NCBI RefSeq assembly: GCF_001677475.2
Contig: NZ_CP015229.1
From: Escherichia coli
Lineage (GTDB): Bacteria > Pseudomonadota > Gammaproteobacteria > Enterobacterales > Enterobacteriaceae
Strand: one strand, 5' to 3'
Length of the DNA: 64,000 nt
Part shown: in pieces, positions 26,099 through 42,631 of the stretch
Numbering within the stretch: the first letter of the stretch is position 1
How the letters are laid out: every line of letters starts with the position of its first letter
Notes under the pieces: model-generated
What the model was told of the DNA's origin: nothing
Seen by the model: only the letters and a program-made list of their open reading frames with translations
The model's database searches: none
Program-made: the position numbers and the translations under genes

Positions 26099-28549
26099 TT
26101 AAAAATCAACCGGATTCGGGATCAGTTTTTGCCAGATTGCTGAAACGTATTTTGCCTGGTAACGAGCGTCATCAAGTGCATTATGGCGCTCACCTTCGAA
26201 TGGGATAGCTGTTCTGGCATCGAAGTCTATGGCTTTCCCCAGCTCAACGATTGTGCGTACATCGCGATCGTTGCAGTAGCGCCAAGGGCAGGGGATACCC
26301 TGTCGTTCGTATGAACGGCGTAAAATCACGTTGTCGAAGTTGGCCCCATTACCCCAGACCTGAACAAAAAATTCACCGGAGTTTTCGTCGATAAATTCCC
26401 GCAATTGCAGCAGTGCATCATCTAACGGGATTTCATCGGTCAGAATGGCAGATTGCGCCTCGCGTGATTGCTTAAGCCACCATTTTATGGTGTCACGATT
26501 AATGACTCCGCCAGCAGTTTCCAGATCGATGGTCTTACTAAATTCCGGCCCCATATCTCCGGTTTGCGGATCGAAAAATATTGCACCTATTGAGATAATC
26601 GGGGCATCGGGATTTTTTCCCATGGTTTCAAGGTCGATCATAAGATGGTCACATGACCTGCTTGTGGATGTGATATTGTGATAACCGTTCACCTTAATTA
26701 AGGGATCTGTTGCTTCGCCAGTTTCATTATCGCTGGCGTGATGCTGATTGCCTCCAGTGTTCTCCTTGTGTGGATGTTCAGCGCCTTCCATTTCCTCCGG
26801 ATCATTCTCCTGAGCTTCAACCTGATTCTCTTCATCGAATGTTTCCTGGTATGTTGCGTTTCCCATGACCGCGCCACAGTCAGGACAGTTGCCGCCGCTG
26901 CTCTGACCGCAGACGGTGCAGACTTTTTCCGGTTCCTGTTGCACTACTGGTTCGGATTGTTTCGTTTCTGGTTCGTTTTGTTGCGCATTTGGGCTGTTTT
27001 GTTCCGCTTTCTGGTCGTTCTGTGCCGTTTCTTGCTGGTTCTGGTTCACAGAATCGCGGGTTTCAATCCCCTTCACCCATTTCGGATCATTCGGGTCGCT
27101 AATCCCTGCAACAAATTCACCACGTGATGCAGCGAGCAACTGACTGGCGTCAGGCAGGCTGATATTGGCTGCCTGCATAATTTTGTTTACTTCGTCAGCG
27201 GTAACTTTTACCTGATTAACCGGATCTATCTGTGCCTGAGTATCCAGCGATTGCGTGTCCTGGCGAAGTTCAGTTGTATCCGGCTCCATTGCTTCAGTCG
27301 TTGCCTGTTCATCTGCCATTGCGTCAGACGGTTGTGATTTTTCATCATTATTTTTTTCTTCTTCTGTTTCGCGTTTAGCAGCCAGTTCGCGGTTAACTTC
27401 TTCCTGGATATCTTTTTCCGGTGTATGTCGTGCAGCAGCGAGAGTTTCTTCGGTAGGGTTCTCGTGATCAGTCTCCGTTAAGTGGGCGTTGATATACTCC
27501 TGAAGGCGTCCCGGGTAGAGATAAAGTTCAGGGTGAGCACTTCGGATAAGTGCAAAAATAGCGGCACGGGAATAATCCAGAATACCAGGGGTTGCGCGAA
27601 GTGCTGCGGACCATTCTTTGAACGGACTTTCTTTCTTCCGGACGACTTCTTTTGCGCGACGATAAACGCTGCCCGGAATTTCATAAATATTAAAATCCAT
27701 CGGAAGTGTGGCCGCTGCAATCTCCACATCCAGCGTATCGAAGGTGTGTACTAAATTCGGATTGCGATCGGTTTTGTTCCCGCCGCCAGCATTAGCACCG
27801 GAAGCCGTGCGGATGATGCGTGAAACACGATTCCCCTTCATCCACTCTTTTGTAAGCAGACCGCGATCGGTGTAGTCAGCGCCCAGGTATGCTTCGAAAA
27901 AAGCAGTCATCAGTCCCAGGTCTGAATTGCCAGGATTAGGGAAAACTTTGTCAGTGTCACGAACCAGTTTGTGGAGATCGCGAATTTCCAGCGGTTCGAG
28001 TTGCGCTGCTTTATTTGAGATGGCCAGCGCGGTAACGGCGGGAAGTTTTTCATCCTGTGCGTTATGTAATGCGCGCAGTTCGCCCCGCGAAACGTGAGTG
28101 ATCGGTTTTTCGCTGCCGTGCTGAGCAAGCCAGCGAATGGGAAGTATCTGGCCAGAAACCGGGAGTAGCATATTCTCCTCAATATCAGTCATGTCTTCGC
28201 CGTTGACGTTGGTATTGTCAGTGCTGGCTGGTTTATCCTGAACAGAGGGCGCGATAAATACCATTGTGATACCATCTTCCCCGCCTTTTTCGTATCGGTT
28301 GCAGAATTCGGTATCAAACACACCTTCCGGAGGCAGGTCATTCACAACGGGTAAATGGACGCGGACGGGTTTTTTAAAGTCGTCTTCATCATAATCGTTG
28401 TCATCCATTGCGGTAATACAACGGGAGATGGCAACAGATAATTTTTTTGCTGTGGTCCAGTAAAAACCACCTTTAATTCCCAGGCGTTTTCTGACTTTGT
28501 CATTTTTTGCTTCGCAATATAGCGCAAATTCTTCTTTTTCAGTGCTCAT
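26099..28549 (-). CDS. large early protein with C-terminal DEDDh 3'-5' exonuclease domain
   Basis: 816 aa. The C-terminus has DLETMG, NGANFD and HNALDDA motifs (Exo I/II/III). The central region is an acidic/Q-rich linker plus a CTVCG..CPDCG zinc ribbon. Confidence 0.8.
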   Translation of the reverse strand: MSTEKEEFALYCEAKNDKVRKRLGIKGGFYWTTAKKLSVAISRCITAMDDNDYDEDDFKKPVRVHLPVVNDLPPEGVFDTEFCNRYEKGGEDGITMVFIAPSVQDKPASTDNTNVNGEDMTDIEENMLLPVSGQILPIRWLAQHGSEKPITHVSRGELRALHNAQDEKLPAVTALAISNKAAQLEPLEIRDLHKLVRDTDKVFPNPGNSDLGLMTAFFEAYLGADYTDRGLLTKEWMKGNRVSRIIRTASGANAGGGNKTDRNPNLVHTFDTLDVEIAAATLPMDFNIYEIPGSVYRRAKEVVRKKESPFKEWSAALRATPGILDYSRAAIFALIRSAHPELYLYPGRLQEYINAHLTETDHENPTEETLAAARHTPEKDIQEEVNRELAAKRETEEEKNNDEKSQPSDAMADEQATTEAMEPDTTELRQDTQSLDTQAQIDPVNQVKVTADEVNKIMQAANISLPDASQLLAASRGEFVAGISDPNDPKWVKGIETRDSVNQNQQETAQNDQKAEQNSPNAQQNEPETKQSEPVVQQEPEKVCTVCGQSSGGNCPDCGAVMGNATYQETFDEENQVEAQENDPEEMEGAEHPHKENTGGNQHHASDNETGEATDPLIKVNGYHNITSTSRSCDHLMIDLETMGKNPDAPIISIGAIFFDPQTGDMGPEFSKTIDLETAGGVINRDTIKWWLKQSREAQSAILTDEIPLDDALLQLREFIDENSGEFFVQVWGNGANFDNVILRRSYERQGIPCPWRYCNDRDVRTIVELGKAIDFDARTAIPFEGERHNALDDARYQAKYVSAIWQKLIPNPVDF

Positions 28550-28639: not shown

Positions 28640-28831
28640 TTAAAGTCCTGCCGGGACTTCGTTATTATCCATGCGAATAACTTTATCGACCGGATAACAG
28701 TTACCGGGAATTTTTTGTTCTGCTGCGGCAGCCATGCATTCTTTCATTGAACCGTATAAGCCAGTCACCAGCTCAAGAGATTCGCCGGAAACAAGATAAA
28801 CTGTCAGAACGAGTGCAAATGTTGTATTCAT
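28640..28831 (-). CDS. small secreted/membrane protein (DUF1482-like)
   Basis: 63 aa with a hydrophobic N-terminus, translationally coupled to the upstream gene. Confidence 0.55.
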   Translation of the reverse strand: MNTTFALVLTVYLVSGESLELVTGLYGSMKECMAAAAEQKIPGNCYPVDKVIRMDNNEVPAGL

Positions 28832-29016
28832 TGTTTATATCCTTTTTGCCGCAGGTCCAGACGAGCCAGCATTGAAGGAATGCATACTTCATTTAACAGG
28901 TCCTGCTCGAGTGTTCTCTGCTTAATGGCGTCTTCAATAAATGTTTTGTCTCCGGTGATAACGCCAATTTCGAAACGAAGTTCAGACGTACTGGCATTGC
29001 ATGATAACTTTTCCAT
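28828..29016 (-). CDS. dicB: DicB-like cell-division inhibitor
   Basis: 62 aa. FEIGV..F.EDAI..R...LLN..CI.SMLARL.L..KG matches my recollection of Qin DicB. It lies downstream of a DicF-like RNA, as in Qin. Confidence 0.75.
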   Translation of the reverse strand: MEKLSCNASTSELRFEIGVITGDKTFIEDAIKQRTLEQDLLNEVCIPSMLARLDLRQKGYKQ

Positions 29017-29190
29017 TATCGCGTCCTCAACAATGAATTTTGTGATGCGGTGCCTGGTGCCTCCAGGTGACGTTAACCAGTTAACAATTAACGCCGGAGT
29101 ATTTCACGTTACGCCAGTAAAGGACCGCTTTACTGTTTTAACTGTTCCGCGTGCGCTTAGCCGCATTCACCGCATCACAAAATTCACTTT

Positions 29191-29249
29191 AAAAAGGGCG
29201 GACATCAGCCAGCAATGAAAACTGATGCCGCCAAAGGTACCAATCAACA
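29191..29249 (-). ncRNA. dicF: DicF-like sRNA
   Basis: The minus strand reads ...CCTTTGGCGGCATCAGTTTTCATTGCTGGCTGATGTCCGCCCTTTTT. The core TTTGGCGG(C/T)ATCAGTTTT and the GGCGG...CCGCC-T5 terminator match E. coli DicF. The 5' end is approximate. Confidence 0.75.
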
Positions 29250-29573
29250 TGGAGTGTTGCGGCGGGGTTGTCACTCAGGCGTATGGTCAACCTGACAACC
29301 CGGTGTCACCAGTGGGGGTAAGGAAAACCCCGCCATACTTACCGCCGCGCCATTTCGCGGAGTGCCACAACCGGAAGCGCACGGTCGACGAAAATTTAAC
29401 GACAGGCTATCTATGAACCATAAACCTCGCCGTGCGCTTTCGCGTTATGCCCTGACTTTTCAGGGAAATATCCTTTCAGTAAACTGTCAGTGCCGGATGT
29501 TCACCCGTGTCCGGCGCACGCACTCCACCTCACCCGTGGAGAACCCCTTAATTACCAACCCTCAGGAGAGTGA

Positions 29574-31116: not shown

Positions 31117-31404
31117 TTAAGGTGTTACAGGGAACTGTCGGCGGGCGTGAACTACGCTAACAATTTCAATGCCTGAAATTGTCACGCGGTATAGAATTAT
31201 GTAATTGGGGTGAGCAACAATTTCACGCAAACCCGGAACTCTGTCGCTTGGCGGGTATAAATACGGATGCTCAGATAATGGCAGGACGCAAGTCCTTAAG
31301 CGTTTCCACAAACGTTCTGCCGCATCTATATCAAAACGAGCAATATAGCTAGTTATATCATCCAAGTCGGCATCTGCGCTTTCGAGCCATAAAACCGGTA
31401 ACAT
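31117..31404 (-). CDS. parE: ParE-family toxin (ParE2-like)
   Basis: 95 aa, MLPVLWLESADADLDDITSYIARFDIDAAERLW..., recognised as the ParE toxin of the O157 PaaR-PaaA-ParE system. Confidence 0.85.
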   Translation of the reverse strand: MLPVLWLESADADLDDITSYIARFDIDAAERLWKRLRTCVLPLSEHPYLYPPSDRVPGLREIVAHPNYIILYRVTISGIEIVSVVHARRQFPVTP

Positions 31405-31596
31405 TTACTGCTTGCTCCGTTCCTTGCGCATGTTAGCAAAGCGTTCAGCCATTCTGCGTTCAACTTCGTCATGTGGGATGGCTGGACGTGGATCAGCAAG
31501 GCTTGCGGCCACTTTTGCACGCAGCCATTCGTTATAACTATTTTCTTGCTCGATGGTTTCAAATTCAGAAACCATTGGTGAAAGGGCTGTGTTCAT
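31405..31596 (-). CDS. paaA: PaaA-like antitoxin
   Basis: 63 aa from MNTALSPMVSEFETIEQENSYNEWLRAKV. It abuts the parE start. Confidence 0.8.
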   Translation of the reverse strand: MNTALSPMVSEFETIEQENSYNEWLRAKVAASLADPRPAIPHDEVERRMAERFANMRKERSKQ

Positions 31597-31631
31597 GGCG
31601 AACCTCGTTTTGTAAGTGCTGGTAATTCTGC

Positions 31632-32027
31632 CTAGGTAACTTTTTGTTGTGCTGCTAGCCACCTTGCAACTATACGATCCATTGTCTCTTTTTTTTCCTT
31701 CATATCTTTAAGTATTTGCTGTTGATCTTCCTCTGGAAATGCCTCAAATGTTTGAAGTAGCTCCTTTTGCTTAGGAGATATTTTTAATATATCCTGTGTT
31801 TTGTCTTCTTTTTCTTCATTTAATGGTAAGAAAAACCAATGTTGGGGAAAACCCGTTACTTCAGATAGTTTATCTAGATTAGCTGCTGTAGGGCTTGATA
31901 TACCACAAACCCACCTTTGGACGGATTGTTGAGCAATACCAATTCTGCGCGCAAGCTCTGCTTGACTCCAGCCTTTTTCTAATAGAAGCATCTTAATTCT
32001 AAGAGCACTAATTTCGAGTACGCCCAT
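31632..32027 (-). CDS. paaR: PaaR-like XRE-HTH regulator
   Basis: 131 aa with the HTH LLEKGWSQAELARRIGIAQQSVQRW. It is the first gene of the three-gene module. Confidence 0.75.
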   Translation of the reverse strand: MGVLEISALRIKMLLLEKGWSQAELARRIGIAQQSVQRWVCGISSPTAANLDKLSEVTGFPQHWFFLPLNEEKEDKTQDILKISPKQKELLQTFEAFPEEDQQQILKDMKEKKETMDRIVARWLAAQQKVT

Positions 32028-42379: not shown

Positions 42380-42455
42380 GGCCCTTTAGCTCAGTGGTGA
42401 GAGCGAGCGACTCATAATCGCCAGGTCGCTGGTTCAAATCCAGCAAGGGCCACCA
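42380..42455 (+). tRNA. ileZ: tRNA with CAU anticodon (ileZ-type Ile2/Met-like)
   Basis: 76 nt. The acceptor is GGCCCTT/AAGGGCC, the anticodon loop is CTCATAA, the T loop is GGTTCAAATCC, and CCA is encoded. Confidence 0.85.
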
Positions 42456-42554: not shown

Positions 42555-42631
42555 GCGTTGTTAGCTCAGTCGGACAGAGCAATTGCCTTCTAAGCAATCG
42601 GTCACTGGTTCGAATCCAGTACAACGCGCCA
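42555..42631 (+). tRNA. argO: tRNA-Arg(UCU)
   Basis: 77 nt. The acceptor is GCGTTGT/ACAACGC, the anticodon loop is CTTCTAA, and CCA is encoded. Confidence 0.88.

Follow-up and report, generated by a model that had tools for sequence, protein, structure and literature searches.

The locus described here lies on the minus strand of a 64-kb stretch of Escherichia coli DNA (64,000 nt, hereafter the window) and is, as judged from its sequence, the dicF-dicB portion of a lambdoid prophage's leftward early operon (dicBF type), encoding a DicF small RNA (sRNA) and a DicB division inhibitor. The explanation that accounts best for the data, and which we consider probable, is a dicBF-type segment in which a 21-bp RNase III helix closes an element within the spacer and DicF is represented by an allele with changed pairing. 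DicF and DicB are textbook prophage-encoded division inhibitors, and processing of the dicBF transcript by RNase III has been established knowledge since 1990. At its core, the finding adds little beyond this established biology and processing; what is new here is limited to the divergent DicF allele and to the membership of the spacer in a wider family of structured RNAs.

The features follow one another on the minus strand in the order conserved leader, DicF, 157-nt structured spacer, dicB, ydfD and exonuclease gene (Table 1), and the window copy appears to sit in an intact prophage with a full-length exonuclease. Relatives of an 851-nt stretch of this locus were found in 4723 of 5426 complete E. 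coli genomes, with identity of at least 99% in one only, and dicF-dicB-ydfD is also found in sequenced phages, including Tritos and mEp460. In the alignment with the K-12 Qin prophage, for which mean column identity is 90% overall, the leader is mostly invariant, and there is almost no variation in either stem arm, in the inner hairpins or in the dicB ribosome-binding site. Differences between the window and K-12 cluster in three places: the 5′ part and loop of DicF, the middle of the spacer, and the DicB coding sequence.

Table 1. Positions of the features of the dicF-dicB segment in the window and the basis for each.
Feature	Position	Strand	Basis or remark
Exonuclease gene, 816 aa	26099-28549		Downstream of the ydfD-like gene
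ydfD-like gene (DUF1482)	28640-28831	-	Pfam PF07358, 73.6 bits; K-12 synteny; overlaps the dicB stop codon as in K-12
dicB, 62 aa, cell-division inhibitor homologue	28828-29016	-	Pfam PF05358, 126 bits
dicB ribosome-binding region	29014-29028	-	GAGGA 29024-29028, ATG 29014-29016; read from the sequence
Basal helix, 3′ arm, CACCGCAUCACAAAAUUCAUU	29032-29052	-	Inverted-repeat search, RNAalifold, pair counts; ends 3 nt before the dicB Shine-Dalgarno
Spacer element interior, 115 nt	29053-29167	-	Sub-threshold STnc100 match, RNAalifold, pair counts
P5	29063-29067 with 29053-29057	-	
P4	29086-29095 with 29069-29078	-	
Variable P3 arm	~29099-29137	-	
Predicted pseudoknot	CAGUUAA 29138-29144 with UUAACUG 29078-29084	-	Complementarity across the family
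P2	29149-29164	-	
Basal helix, 5′ arm, AGUGAAUUUUGUGAUGCGGUG	29168-29188	-	Inverted-repeat search, MFE fold, RNAalifold, pair counts
DicF terminator hairpin and U5	29191-29232	-	13 bp, one bulged U, 9-nt loop (MFE fold)
DicF-like small RNA, divergent allele	29196-29245	-	Rfam RF00039, 44.1 bits
Conserved untranslated leader 5′ of DicF	29246-29460	-	Homologous to the K-12 190-nt DicF precursor (alignment)

DicB and the divergent DicF allele

The DicB product matches its Pfam profile end to end, residues 1-62 aligning with profile positions 1-62 at a score well clear of the cut-off (126 bits against 27), and is 53% identical to K-12 DicB. A first-pass annotation, made from the letters and their open reading frames, had placed a 62-aa DicB homologue about 175 nt downstream of DicF; the full-length Pfam match bears this out, with the dicB ATG 179 nt past the last DicF model position. 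Searches for DicB relatives by peptide patterns in a species-representative genome collection confirmed none, the patterns being too specific.

The covariance search proposed in that annotation matched the Rfam DicF model (RF00039) over its full length (model positions 1-52 of 52), with an E-value of 4.2e-8 in a local search and 2.4e-6 for the whole window. The score falls short of the gathering score of 48 bits, however, placing the window DicF under the curated threshold, whereas K-12 DicF scores 76.7 bits. A default Rfam search of the window returns two tRNAs and a C4 antisense RNA only, and DicF appears when E-value thresholds are applied, so that automated annotation may miss this allele. 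A simple terminator scan also misses the DicF hairpin because its 9-nt loop exceeds the 8-nt limit of the scan.

Assignment to the DicF family is supported by the presence of the scaffold UUUGGCGGnAUCAGUUUU, a terminator hairpin closed by GGCGG/CCGCC, and the U-run. The DicF core TTTGGCGGCATCAGTTTT is found at 29218-29235, and the bulged hairpin, running from GGCGGCATCAG to CTGATG-T-CCGCC, occupies 29197-29232 and is followed by T5 at 29191-29195. The position between the conserved untranslated leader and dicB is confirmed by alignments to K-12 and O157, in which the flanks are largely invariant, and by annotated homologous loci. The initial description of a minus-strand DicF homologue with a conserved core and bulged terminator is thus upheld by the full model length, the scaffold and exact synteny with K-12 Qin. 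Alignment to K-12 dicF, also proposed at that stage, showed a shared order of features and a conserved scaffold (UUUGGCGGCAUCAGUUUU ... CCGCCC) within which the 5′ single-stranded part and the loop have been replaced. The window hairpin is calculated to be more stable than that of K-12 DicF (-20.1 versus -15.9 kcal/mol), and most of the former loop is drawn into it.

The closest copy, from O157:H7, pairs a window-type spacer and DicB with a K-12-type DicF, so that the DicF segment behaves like a cassette exchanged within conserved flanks; the window allele has the appearance of such a cassette swap at the level of sequence. Matches to the allele at 95% identity or more were found in approximately 16 genomes and matches of any kind in 100 of the 5426 complete E. 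coli genomes, the carriers being mostly bovine or STEC-type strains.

In K-12, DicF acts through its 3′ region on ftsZ and through its 5′ end on xylR (PMC5069750), and our own scan identified an 8-nt match of its loop to the pykA Shine-Dalgarno. These K-12 pairings were recovered by calculation as CUCCG paired to the ftsZ Shine-Dalgarno, UACUCCGU to that of pykA, and a 12-nt UGGUGACGUUUG match to positions +8 to +19 of xylR. In an in silico scan of the same three targets, the CUCCG anti-Shine-Dalgarno, the pykA loop match and the UGGUGACGUUUG seed were all absent from the window DicF. Cofold ddG values, which are crude energies calculated without Hfq or accessibility modelling, were -16.3 for ftsZ, -15.4 for xylR and -9.5 for pykA with K-12 DicF, compared with -8.7, -6.7 and -3.1, respectively, with the window DicF. 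Values as good as those of the window allele are obtained with shuffled sRNAs, and the K-12 value for ftsZ is itself just 1 sd better than shuffles.

The target prediction that the first-pass annotation had called for thus leaves the window allele at the level of shuffled sequences by cofold ddG, and its suggestion that a variable region unlike that of K-12 could shift target specificity fits the loss of complementarity to ftsZ, xylR and pykA in silico. From these models we predict that the window DicF has lost or changed the classical pairing with all three mRNAs, and strains scored as "DicF-positive" may accordingly differ in DicF action.

The inverted repeat as a basal helix and RNase III substrate

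Between DicF and dicB, an 18-bp inverted repeat had been noted at 29035-29052 and 29168-29185. The pairing is perfect at these positions, but the repeat is longer than described, extending to 19 perfectly paired nt (29034-29052 with 29168-29186; arms 115 nt apart) and to 21 bp when one G·U pair is included (29032-29052 with 29168-29188). Among perfect inverted repeats in the window with loops of up to 300 nt it ranks first in length, and no arm longer than 15 nt arose in any of 100 first-order Markov simulations of the window. When 29000-29250 is folded on the minus strand, the MFE structure consists of the DicF hairpin and a long helix enclosing several hairpins (z = -4.98); the dicB ribosome-binding region falls outside this basal helix, leaving the Shine-Dalgarno unpaired. 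The repeat is retained in K-12 Qin and dozens of other prophages and, being conserved in K-12 itself, is not a new feature. A functionless chance complementarity, to which we assign next to no probability, is refuted by the rank of the repeat in 64 kb, by the simulations, and by its conservation in thousands of E. coli genomes.

Variation in the stem was followed in 61 distinct sequences, reaching from dicF to the downstream region, that were gathered from IMG/VR contigs using DNA patterns. Changes in the arms of these copies are transitions that keep Watson-Crick or G·U pairing. In K-12 the helix is kept although two neighbouring pairs are G·U; the opposite strand would have A·C mismatches there, indicating that it is the RNA of the dicF-sense strand on which selection acts. 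In copies with a downstream gene other than dicB, pairing is maintained by an alternative 3′ arm, CACCGCATCAACAAAGTTCA, with one bulge. A second lineage (L142, L145 and L182) encloses the common core in a perfect stem of 20-22 bp that differs in sequence, CAACAGACCTTGCAATGCAGTG pairing with CACTGCATTGCAAGGTCTGTTG.

RNAalifold independently predicted the 21-bp helix and four inner helices from 13 diverse copies. Pair counts on these copies gave 98.1% of cells paired and changes on both sides at 16 of 44 pairs, values reached by none of 500 shuffles, while slid controls were 33-42% paired. Compensatory changes affect 9 of the 21 pairs of the closing helix, with the covariation of the outer helix coming mostly from two lineages and a slight bias from anchoring the copies on at least 4 bp of this helix. 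The homology of the segment, the helix and its covariation are demonstrated by these comparisons.

The same results bear on the suggestion that the repeat acts as DNA, whether by forming a cruciform, as a palindrome bound by a protein, or as a linker for recombination between phage modules. Mosaic junctions do occur at the element, the sequence after the 3′ arm switching between dicB and unrelated genes and the DicF cassette being swapped between conserved flanks, as a linker would have it. However, the arms are separated by 115 nt, an RNase III-dependent RNA end has been published, pairing is kept through G·U pairs that are meaningful only in one-strand RNA, and the inner hairpins and pseudoknot covary too, making a role at the DNA level very improbable.

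The 1990 work of Faubladier, as cited in later papers (PMC5069750, PMC9438474), attributes a 72-nt form of DicF to RNase III acting on the full-length transcript and a 53-nt form to termination. Counting 72 nt from the K-12 DicF 5′ end, a second-hand, gel-based figure that is uncertain by a few nt, leads to nt 12 of the 21-nt 5′ arm, equivalent to approximately 29177 in the window. In a comparison of rnc and wild-type cells by RNA-seq, Gordon et al. (2017, Table S1) list an "intergenic dicF-dicB" site at MG1655 position 1649470, flagged as known, with 0 and 0 reads in the wild type and 26 in rnc-. By our own coordinate mapping, the offset of which was verified with pykA, this position lies 8 nt inside the spacer element, at a resolution of tens of nt given the 26 reads. 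The dicA-dicF-dicB intergenic regions are also named among RNase III substrates in a review. The window stem can be aligned position by position with that of K-12, placing a homologous duplex of at least approximately 20 bp at the K-12 RNase III end.

RNase III also cuts upstream of DicF, creating the 5′ end of a 190-nt precursor (Ragunathan et al. 2023, PMC10448788), and it counts against a cut in the stem that this paper describes only the upstream site. We infer by arithmetic that the upstream site maps to the 3′ arm of a leader repeat (29372-29384 / 29430-29442); the leader upstream of DicF is nearly invariant among 78 copies, so covariation is uninformative in this region. The earlier proposal that the long duplex is the likely RNase III site agrees with the K-12 data, as these are cited in later papers, when mapped onto the homologous stem, and the helix as such is also backed by covariation. 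According to these citations a site in the stem is already known in K-12, and by homology cleavage would be expected at approximately 29177 in the window.

In the dicBF-type explanation favoured here, the DicF hairpin and U-run would form a leaky intrinsic terminator, with read-through into the spacer, dicB, ydfD and the exonuclease gene. The inverted repeat would then fold into a 21-bp RNA helix of about two turns, which would be a substrate for host RNase III. By homology, a cut in the middle of this helix would have three outcomes: a read-through DicF with a 3′ end approximately 19 nt past the terminator, equivalent to the "72-nt DicF" of K-12; a dicB-ydfD mRNA freed from the upstream RNA, with a leader of approximately 25 nt and a free Shine-Dalgarno; and excision of the folded interior of approximately 130 nt. 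Cleavage itself, where exactly the cuts fall, and what they do to dicB expression are all transferred from K-12 mapping, part of it second-hand, and should be read as probable by analogy. The window DicF keeps the Hfq-type scaffold but has another 5′ end and loop, for which no K-12-like pairing with ftsZ, xylR or pykA is predicted.

A structured RNA family in the spacer

On the evidence of covariance and folding models, the basal stem is the extended closing helix of a conserved multi-helix element with a predicted pseudoknot that is related to STnc100. The Rfam STnc100 model (RF02076) matches 29039-29184 over model positions 21-154 of 206 with an E-value of 1.8e-6 in a local search and 38.0 bits, below the gathering score of 47, and the closing helix of the family coincides with the inner portion of the dicF-dicB repeat. 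Other sub-threshold matches were obtained for the K-12 spacer (34.4 bits), L142 (35.2 bits), P7 (43.0 bits) and P1 (33.4 bits). The core architecture of STnc100 is present in the spacer, comprising the closing helix ...GGUG/CACC..., P2, P4 and a P5 hairpin with an AGGCA loop, with P2 differing in sequence and register. The 3′ Rho-independent terminator of STnc100 (model positions ~155-206) and the late-region location are both absent; the element lies in an early-left operon and is followed by the dicB ribosome-binding site.

The motif TCACCNGGAGGCACCNGGCAC occurs once in the window and is matched by at least 120 viral-contig stretches. About half of the extracted copies bearing the motif have no DicF and are canonical late-region elements of STnc100/PasD type, in which the closing helix is 6-10 bp long and a terminator usually comes next. 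Across the family, the inner approximately 8 bp of the closing helix covary strongly and the P4 stem takes many sequences. Of 49 diverse copies, 43, representing at least 12 sequence classes, show complementarity between the segment following P2 and the P4 loop, with a mean run of 6.63 nt compared with 5.02 ± 0.15 when loops are dealt to other sequences. This test is alignment-free, the sequence classes sitting one column apart in the MAFFT alignment, and the complementarity across the family points to a pseudoknot. In the dicF-linked branch, the scaffold is invariant and the central P3 arm is unalignable.

In L142, the element is located directly downstream of a cI-like repressor gene, a placement that led to consideration of the put-type antiterminators of HK022. 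These are approximately 70 nt long, with two stem-loops, and are found just downstream of PL or approximately 270 nt downstream of PR (PMC9378689). The spacer element is 115-157 nt long, with five helices and a pseudoknot, and follows DicF far from the promoter; the candidate was rejected on description, as size and architecture both differ.

STnc100 and PasD, two structurally related prophage sRNAs of unknown function, associate with Hfq, and their targets have been mapped (bioRxiv 10.64898/2026.05.13.724894). It is conceivable, though on balance doubtful, that the helix serves chiefly to close an autonomous sRNA of this type, which would be freed by RNase III, would draw its specificity from the hypervariable P3 arm and would be a second regulatory RNA made by the dicBF operon, a reading that overlaps with the dicBF-type explanation. 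The core motifs GGUGAAU ... UCACCNGGAGGCACCNGGCACC shared with canonical STnc100, the covariation of helices P1, P4 and P5 across the family, the retained pseudoknot complementarity, and the combination of an invariant scaffold with an unalignable P3 in relatives of Hfq-associated RNAs (same preprint) would all suit an sRNA. Against this, the STnc100 match stays below threshold at 38 versus 47 bits and the 3′ terminator part of the model is missing. The reads at the K-12 site (none in the wild type, 26 in rnc-) suggest that the excised piece fails to build up, at least under repression of the operon, and the literature searched reports no sRNA between dicF and dicB. Nor did the literature search find a paper tying STnc100 or PasD to the dicF-dicB spacer.

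Placement of the element in early operons raises an alternative of comparable, limited likelihood, namely a cis-acting 5′ UTR device for the stability or translation of dicB mRNA, through protection of the 5′ end, ribosome standby or insulation, with RNase III cleavage being secondary. In early operons, the element always ends approximately 5-40 nt from a Shine-Dalgarno and start codon, whichever gene comes next: dicB in the window, other small ORFs reached via the alternative 3′ arm, an ORF in L142, and tciA/terB in P1 and P7. The Shine-Dalgarno is moreover left unpaired. Late-region members, on the other hand, are followed by a terminator and no gene, which makes a pure 5′ UTR role impossible for the family as a whole.

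The dicBF-type explanation with its RNase III helix leaves room for a broader proposal, which is more speculative than any of its parts and which we consider somewhat unlikely as it stands. The spacer may represent a hitherto overlooked branch of the STnc100/PasD superfamily, a pseudoknotted RNA fold widespread in phages that also occurs in the ban operons of P1 and P7 and in late operons, sometimes in tandem, and that has gained an added RNase III stem of 21-22 bp in dicBF-type operons. Read-through would release a second RNA of approximately 130 nt with the hypervariable P3 arm as a possible seed and, together with the swapped DicF loop, the segment would form a two-cassette system in which conserved scaffolds present diversifying targeting sequences. 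If so, the window DicF allele would have targets other than ftsZ. The spacer, usually taken as a processing site, is in either event a candidate for a second RNA product or a cis-regulator of dicB.

Comparison with known systems

The K-12 Qin locus is alike in the order of leader, DicF, spacer, dicB, ydfD and exonuclease, in the dicB ribosome-binding site, in the inner hairpins, and in the 21-bp stem, which contains two G·U pairs in K-12; processing by RNase III as well as RNase E is documented for the K-12 locus. The window differs from it in the diverged DicB, in the replaced 5′ seed and loop of DicF (44.1 versus 76.7 bits), and in a central P3 spacer arm that is unrelated. Upstream, ydfABC is absent and a ParE/PaaA2 toxin-antitoxin pair is present instead.

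Intercistronic RNase III signals are familiar from polycistronic phage transcripts, such as the T7 R1.1-type sites and the lambda N-leader site, where a duplex of about two turns lies between cistrons and, once cut, releases functional RNAs from one another and fixes the 5′ end of the mRNA downstream. The dicF-dicB duplex differs from the T7 and lambda signals in closing a 115-nt multi-helix, pseudoknotted insert rather than forming a simple hairpin with an internal loop, and the sequences are unrelated.

The spacer element shares with STnc100/PasD (RF02076) the core motifs, a closing helix at equal model positions, P4, the predicted pseudoknot topology, and the P5 hairpin CCNGG-AGGCA-CCNGG. 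It differs from canonical members in a closing helix of 21 bp rather than 6-10 bp, in the sequence and register of P2, and in its setting, since it precedes a gene in an early-left operon whereas canonical members belong to the late region and have a terminator after them. In P1, P7 and D6, the ban operon contains the same spacer core just upstream of tciA/terB, with 82-87% identity over 129 nt in P7 and D6, and the P1 record annotates a "dicF-like region" earlier in the operon. In these operons, however, the extended 21-bp outer stem falls outside the match, tRNA genes lie between the DicF-like part and the element, and there is no dicB.

DicF, its leader and the spacer

The untranslated leader upstream of DicF is largely invariant in alignment with K-12 despite different neighbouring genes, and contains two inverted repeats (see table); by arithmetic, the published upstream RNase III cut falls on the first of these. 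The closest O157 locus, that of O157:H7 ATCC 43894, has the spacer and DicB type found in the window together with a K-12-type DicF, and the differences between the two DicF sequences are confined to the 5′ part and the loop, with the flanks otherwise conserved. The restriction of change to these parts between conserved flanks suggests that the targeting portions of DicF have been exchanged in a cassette-like manner, or have diversified.

The interior of the spacer element, the folded RNA between DicF and dicB, contains a predicted pseudoknot that pairs the segment following helix P2 with the loop of helix P4. This pairing shows covariation in at least 12 sequence classes and appears to be conserved across the STnc100-like family, the relatives of the spacer element; the linear Rfam consensus in the cmscan output carries no pseudoknot annotation. 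On some viral contigs, two to four family copies lie within 1–4 kb. A terminator scan of the opposite strand identified the hairpin of P3, the variable central arm, followed by TTTTAAC as a terminator-like site, probably a by-product of the minus-strand RNA structure.

Features of the dicF-dicB region, the surrounding prophage and the P1 family
Feature	Location	Strand	Remarks
Leader of DicF	window 29246-29460	-	~215 nt
Leader inverted repeat 1	29372-29384/29430-29442
Leader inverted repeat 2	29261-29272/29323-29334
DicF	window 29196-29245	-
Spacer interior	window 29053-29167	-	family copies L130, L141, L184, L188, L203 and others
Terminator-like site	window 29115-29135	+
ParE toxin and PaaA2-type antitoxin	window 31117-31662	-	PF05016, 61 bits; PF21217, 73 bits
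Exonuclease gene	window 26099-28549	-	816 aa
tRNA genes	window 42380-42452 and 42555-42628	+
C4 antisense RNA	window 50535-50739	+	72.3 bits, above threshold
Annotated 'dicF-like region'	phage P1 (L222, NC_005856) 68791-68892		ban operon
Spacer core	phage P1 (L222, NC_005856) about 70080-70200
Spacer core	P7 (L223) 72453-72568

Neighbouring genes and other prophage RNAs

The toxin-antitoxin pair appears to be part of the leftward early operon, at the place of K-12 ydfABC, since it lies upstream of DicF on the same strand. The exonuclease gene, whose product has an Exonuc_VIII-like region at its N terminus and an Rv2179c-like 3′-5′ exoribonuclease/DEDD domain at its C terminus, appears to be the intact version of the K-12 Qin exonuclease gene, which is annotated as incomplete beside an IS2 transposase. 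The two tRNA genes are encoded on the rightward strand and spaced 100 nt apart; Stx-type lambdoid phages typically have such an arrangement downstream of Q.

Relationship to P1-family phages

Directly upstream of the C4 antisense RNA are sub-threshold matches to the a1/b1 target (42.1 bits) and to an isrK-like RNA. The C4 region is a P1/P7-type immI antirepressor-control module within the window prophage. In the P1-family ban operon, the spacer core of the dicF-dicB element recurs downstream of the 'dicF-like region' and immediately ahead of tciA/terB; a DicF-like RNA and the spacer core therefore co-occur outside lambdoid phages.
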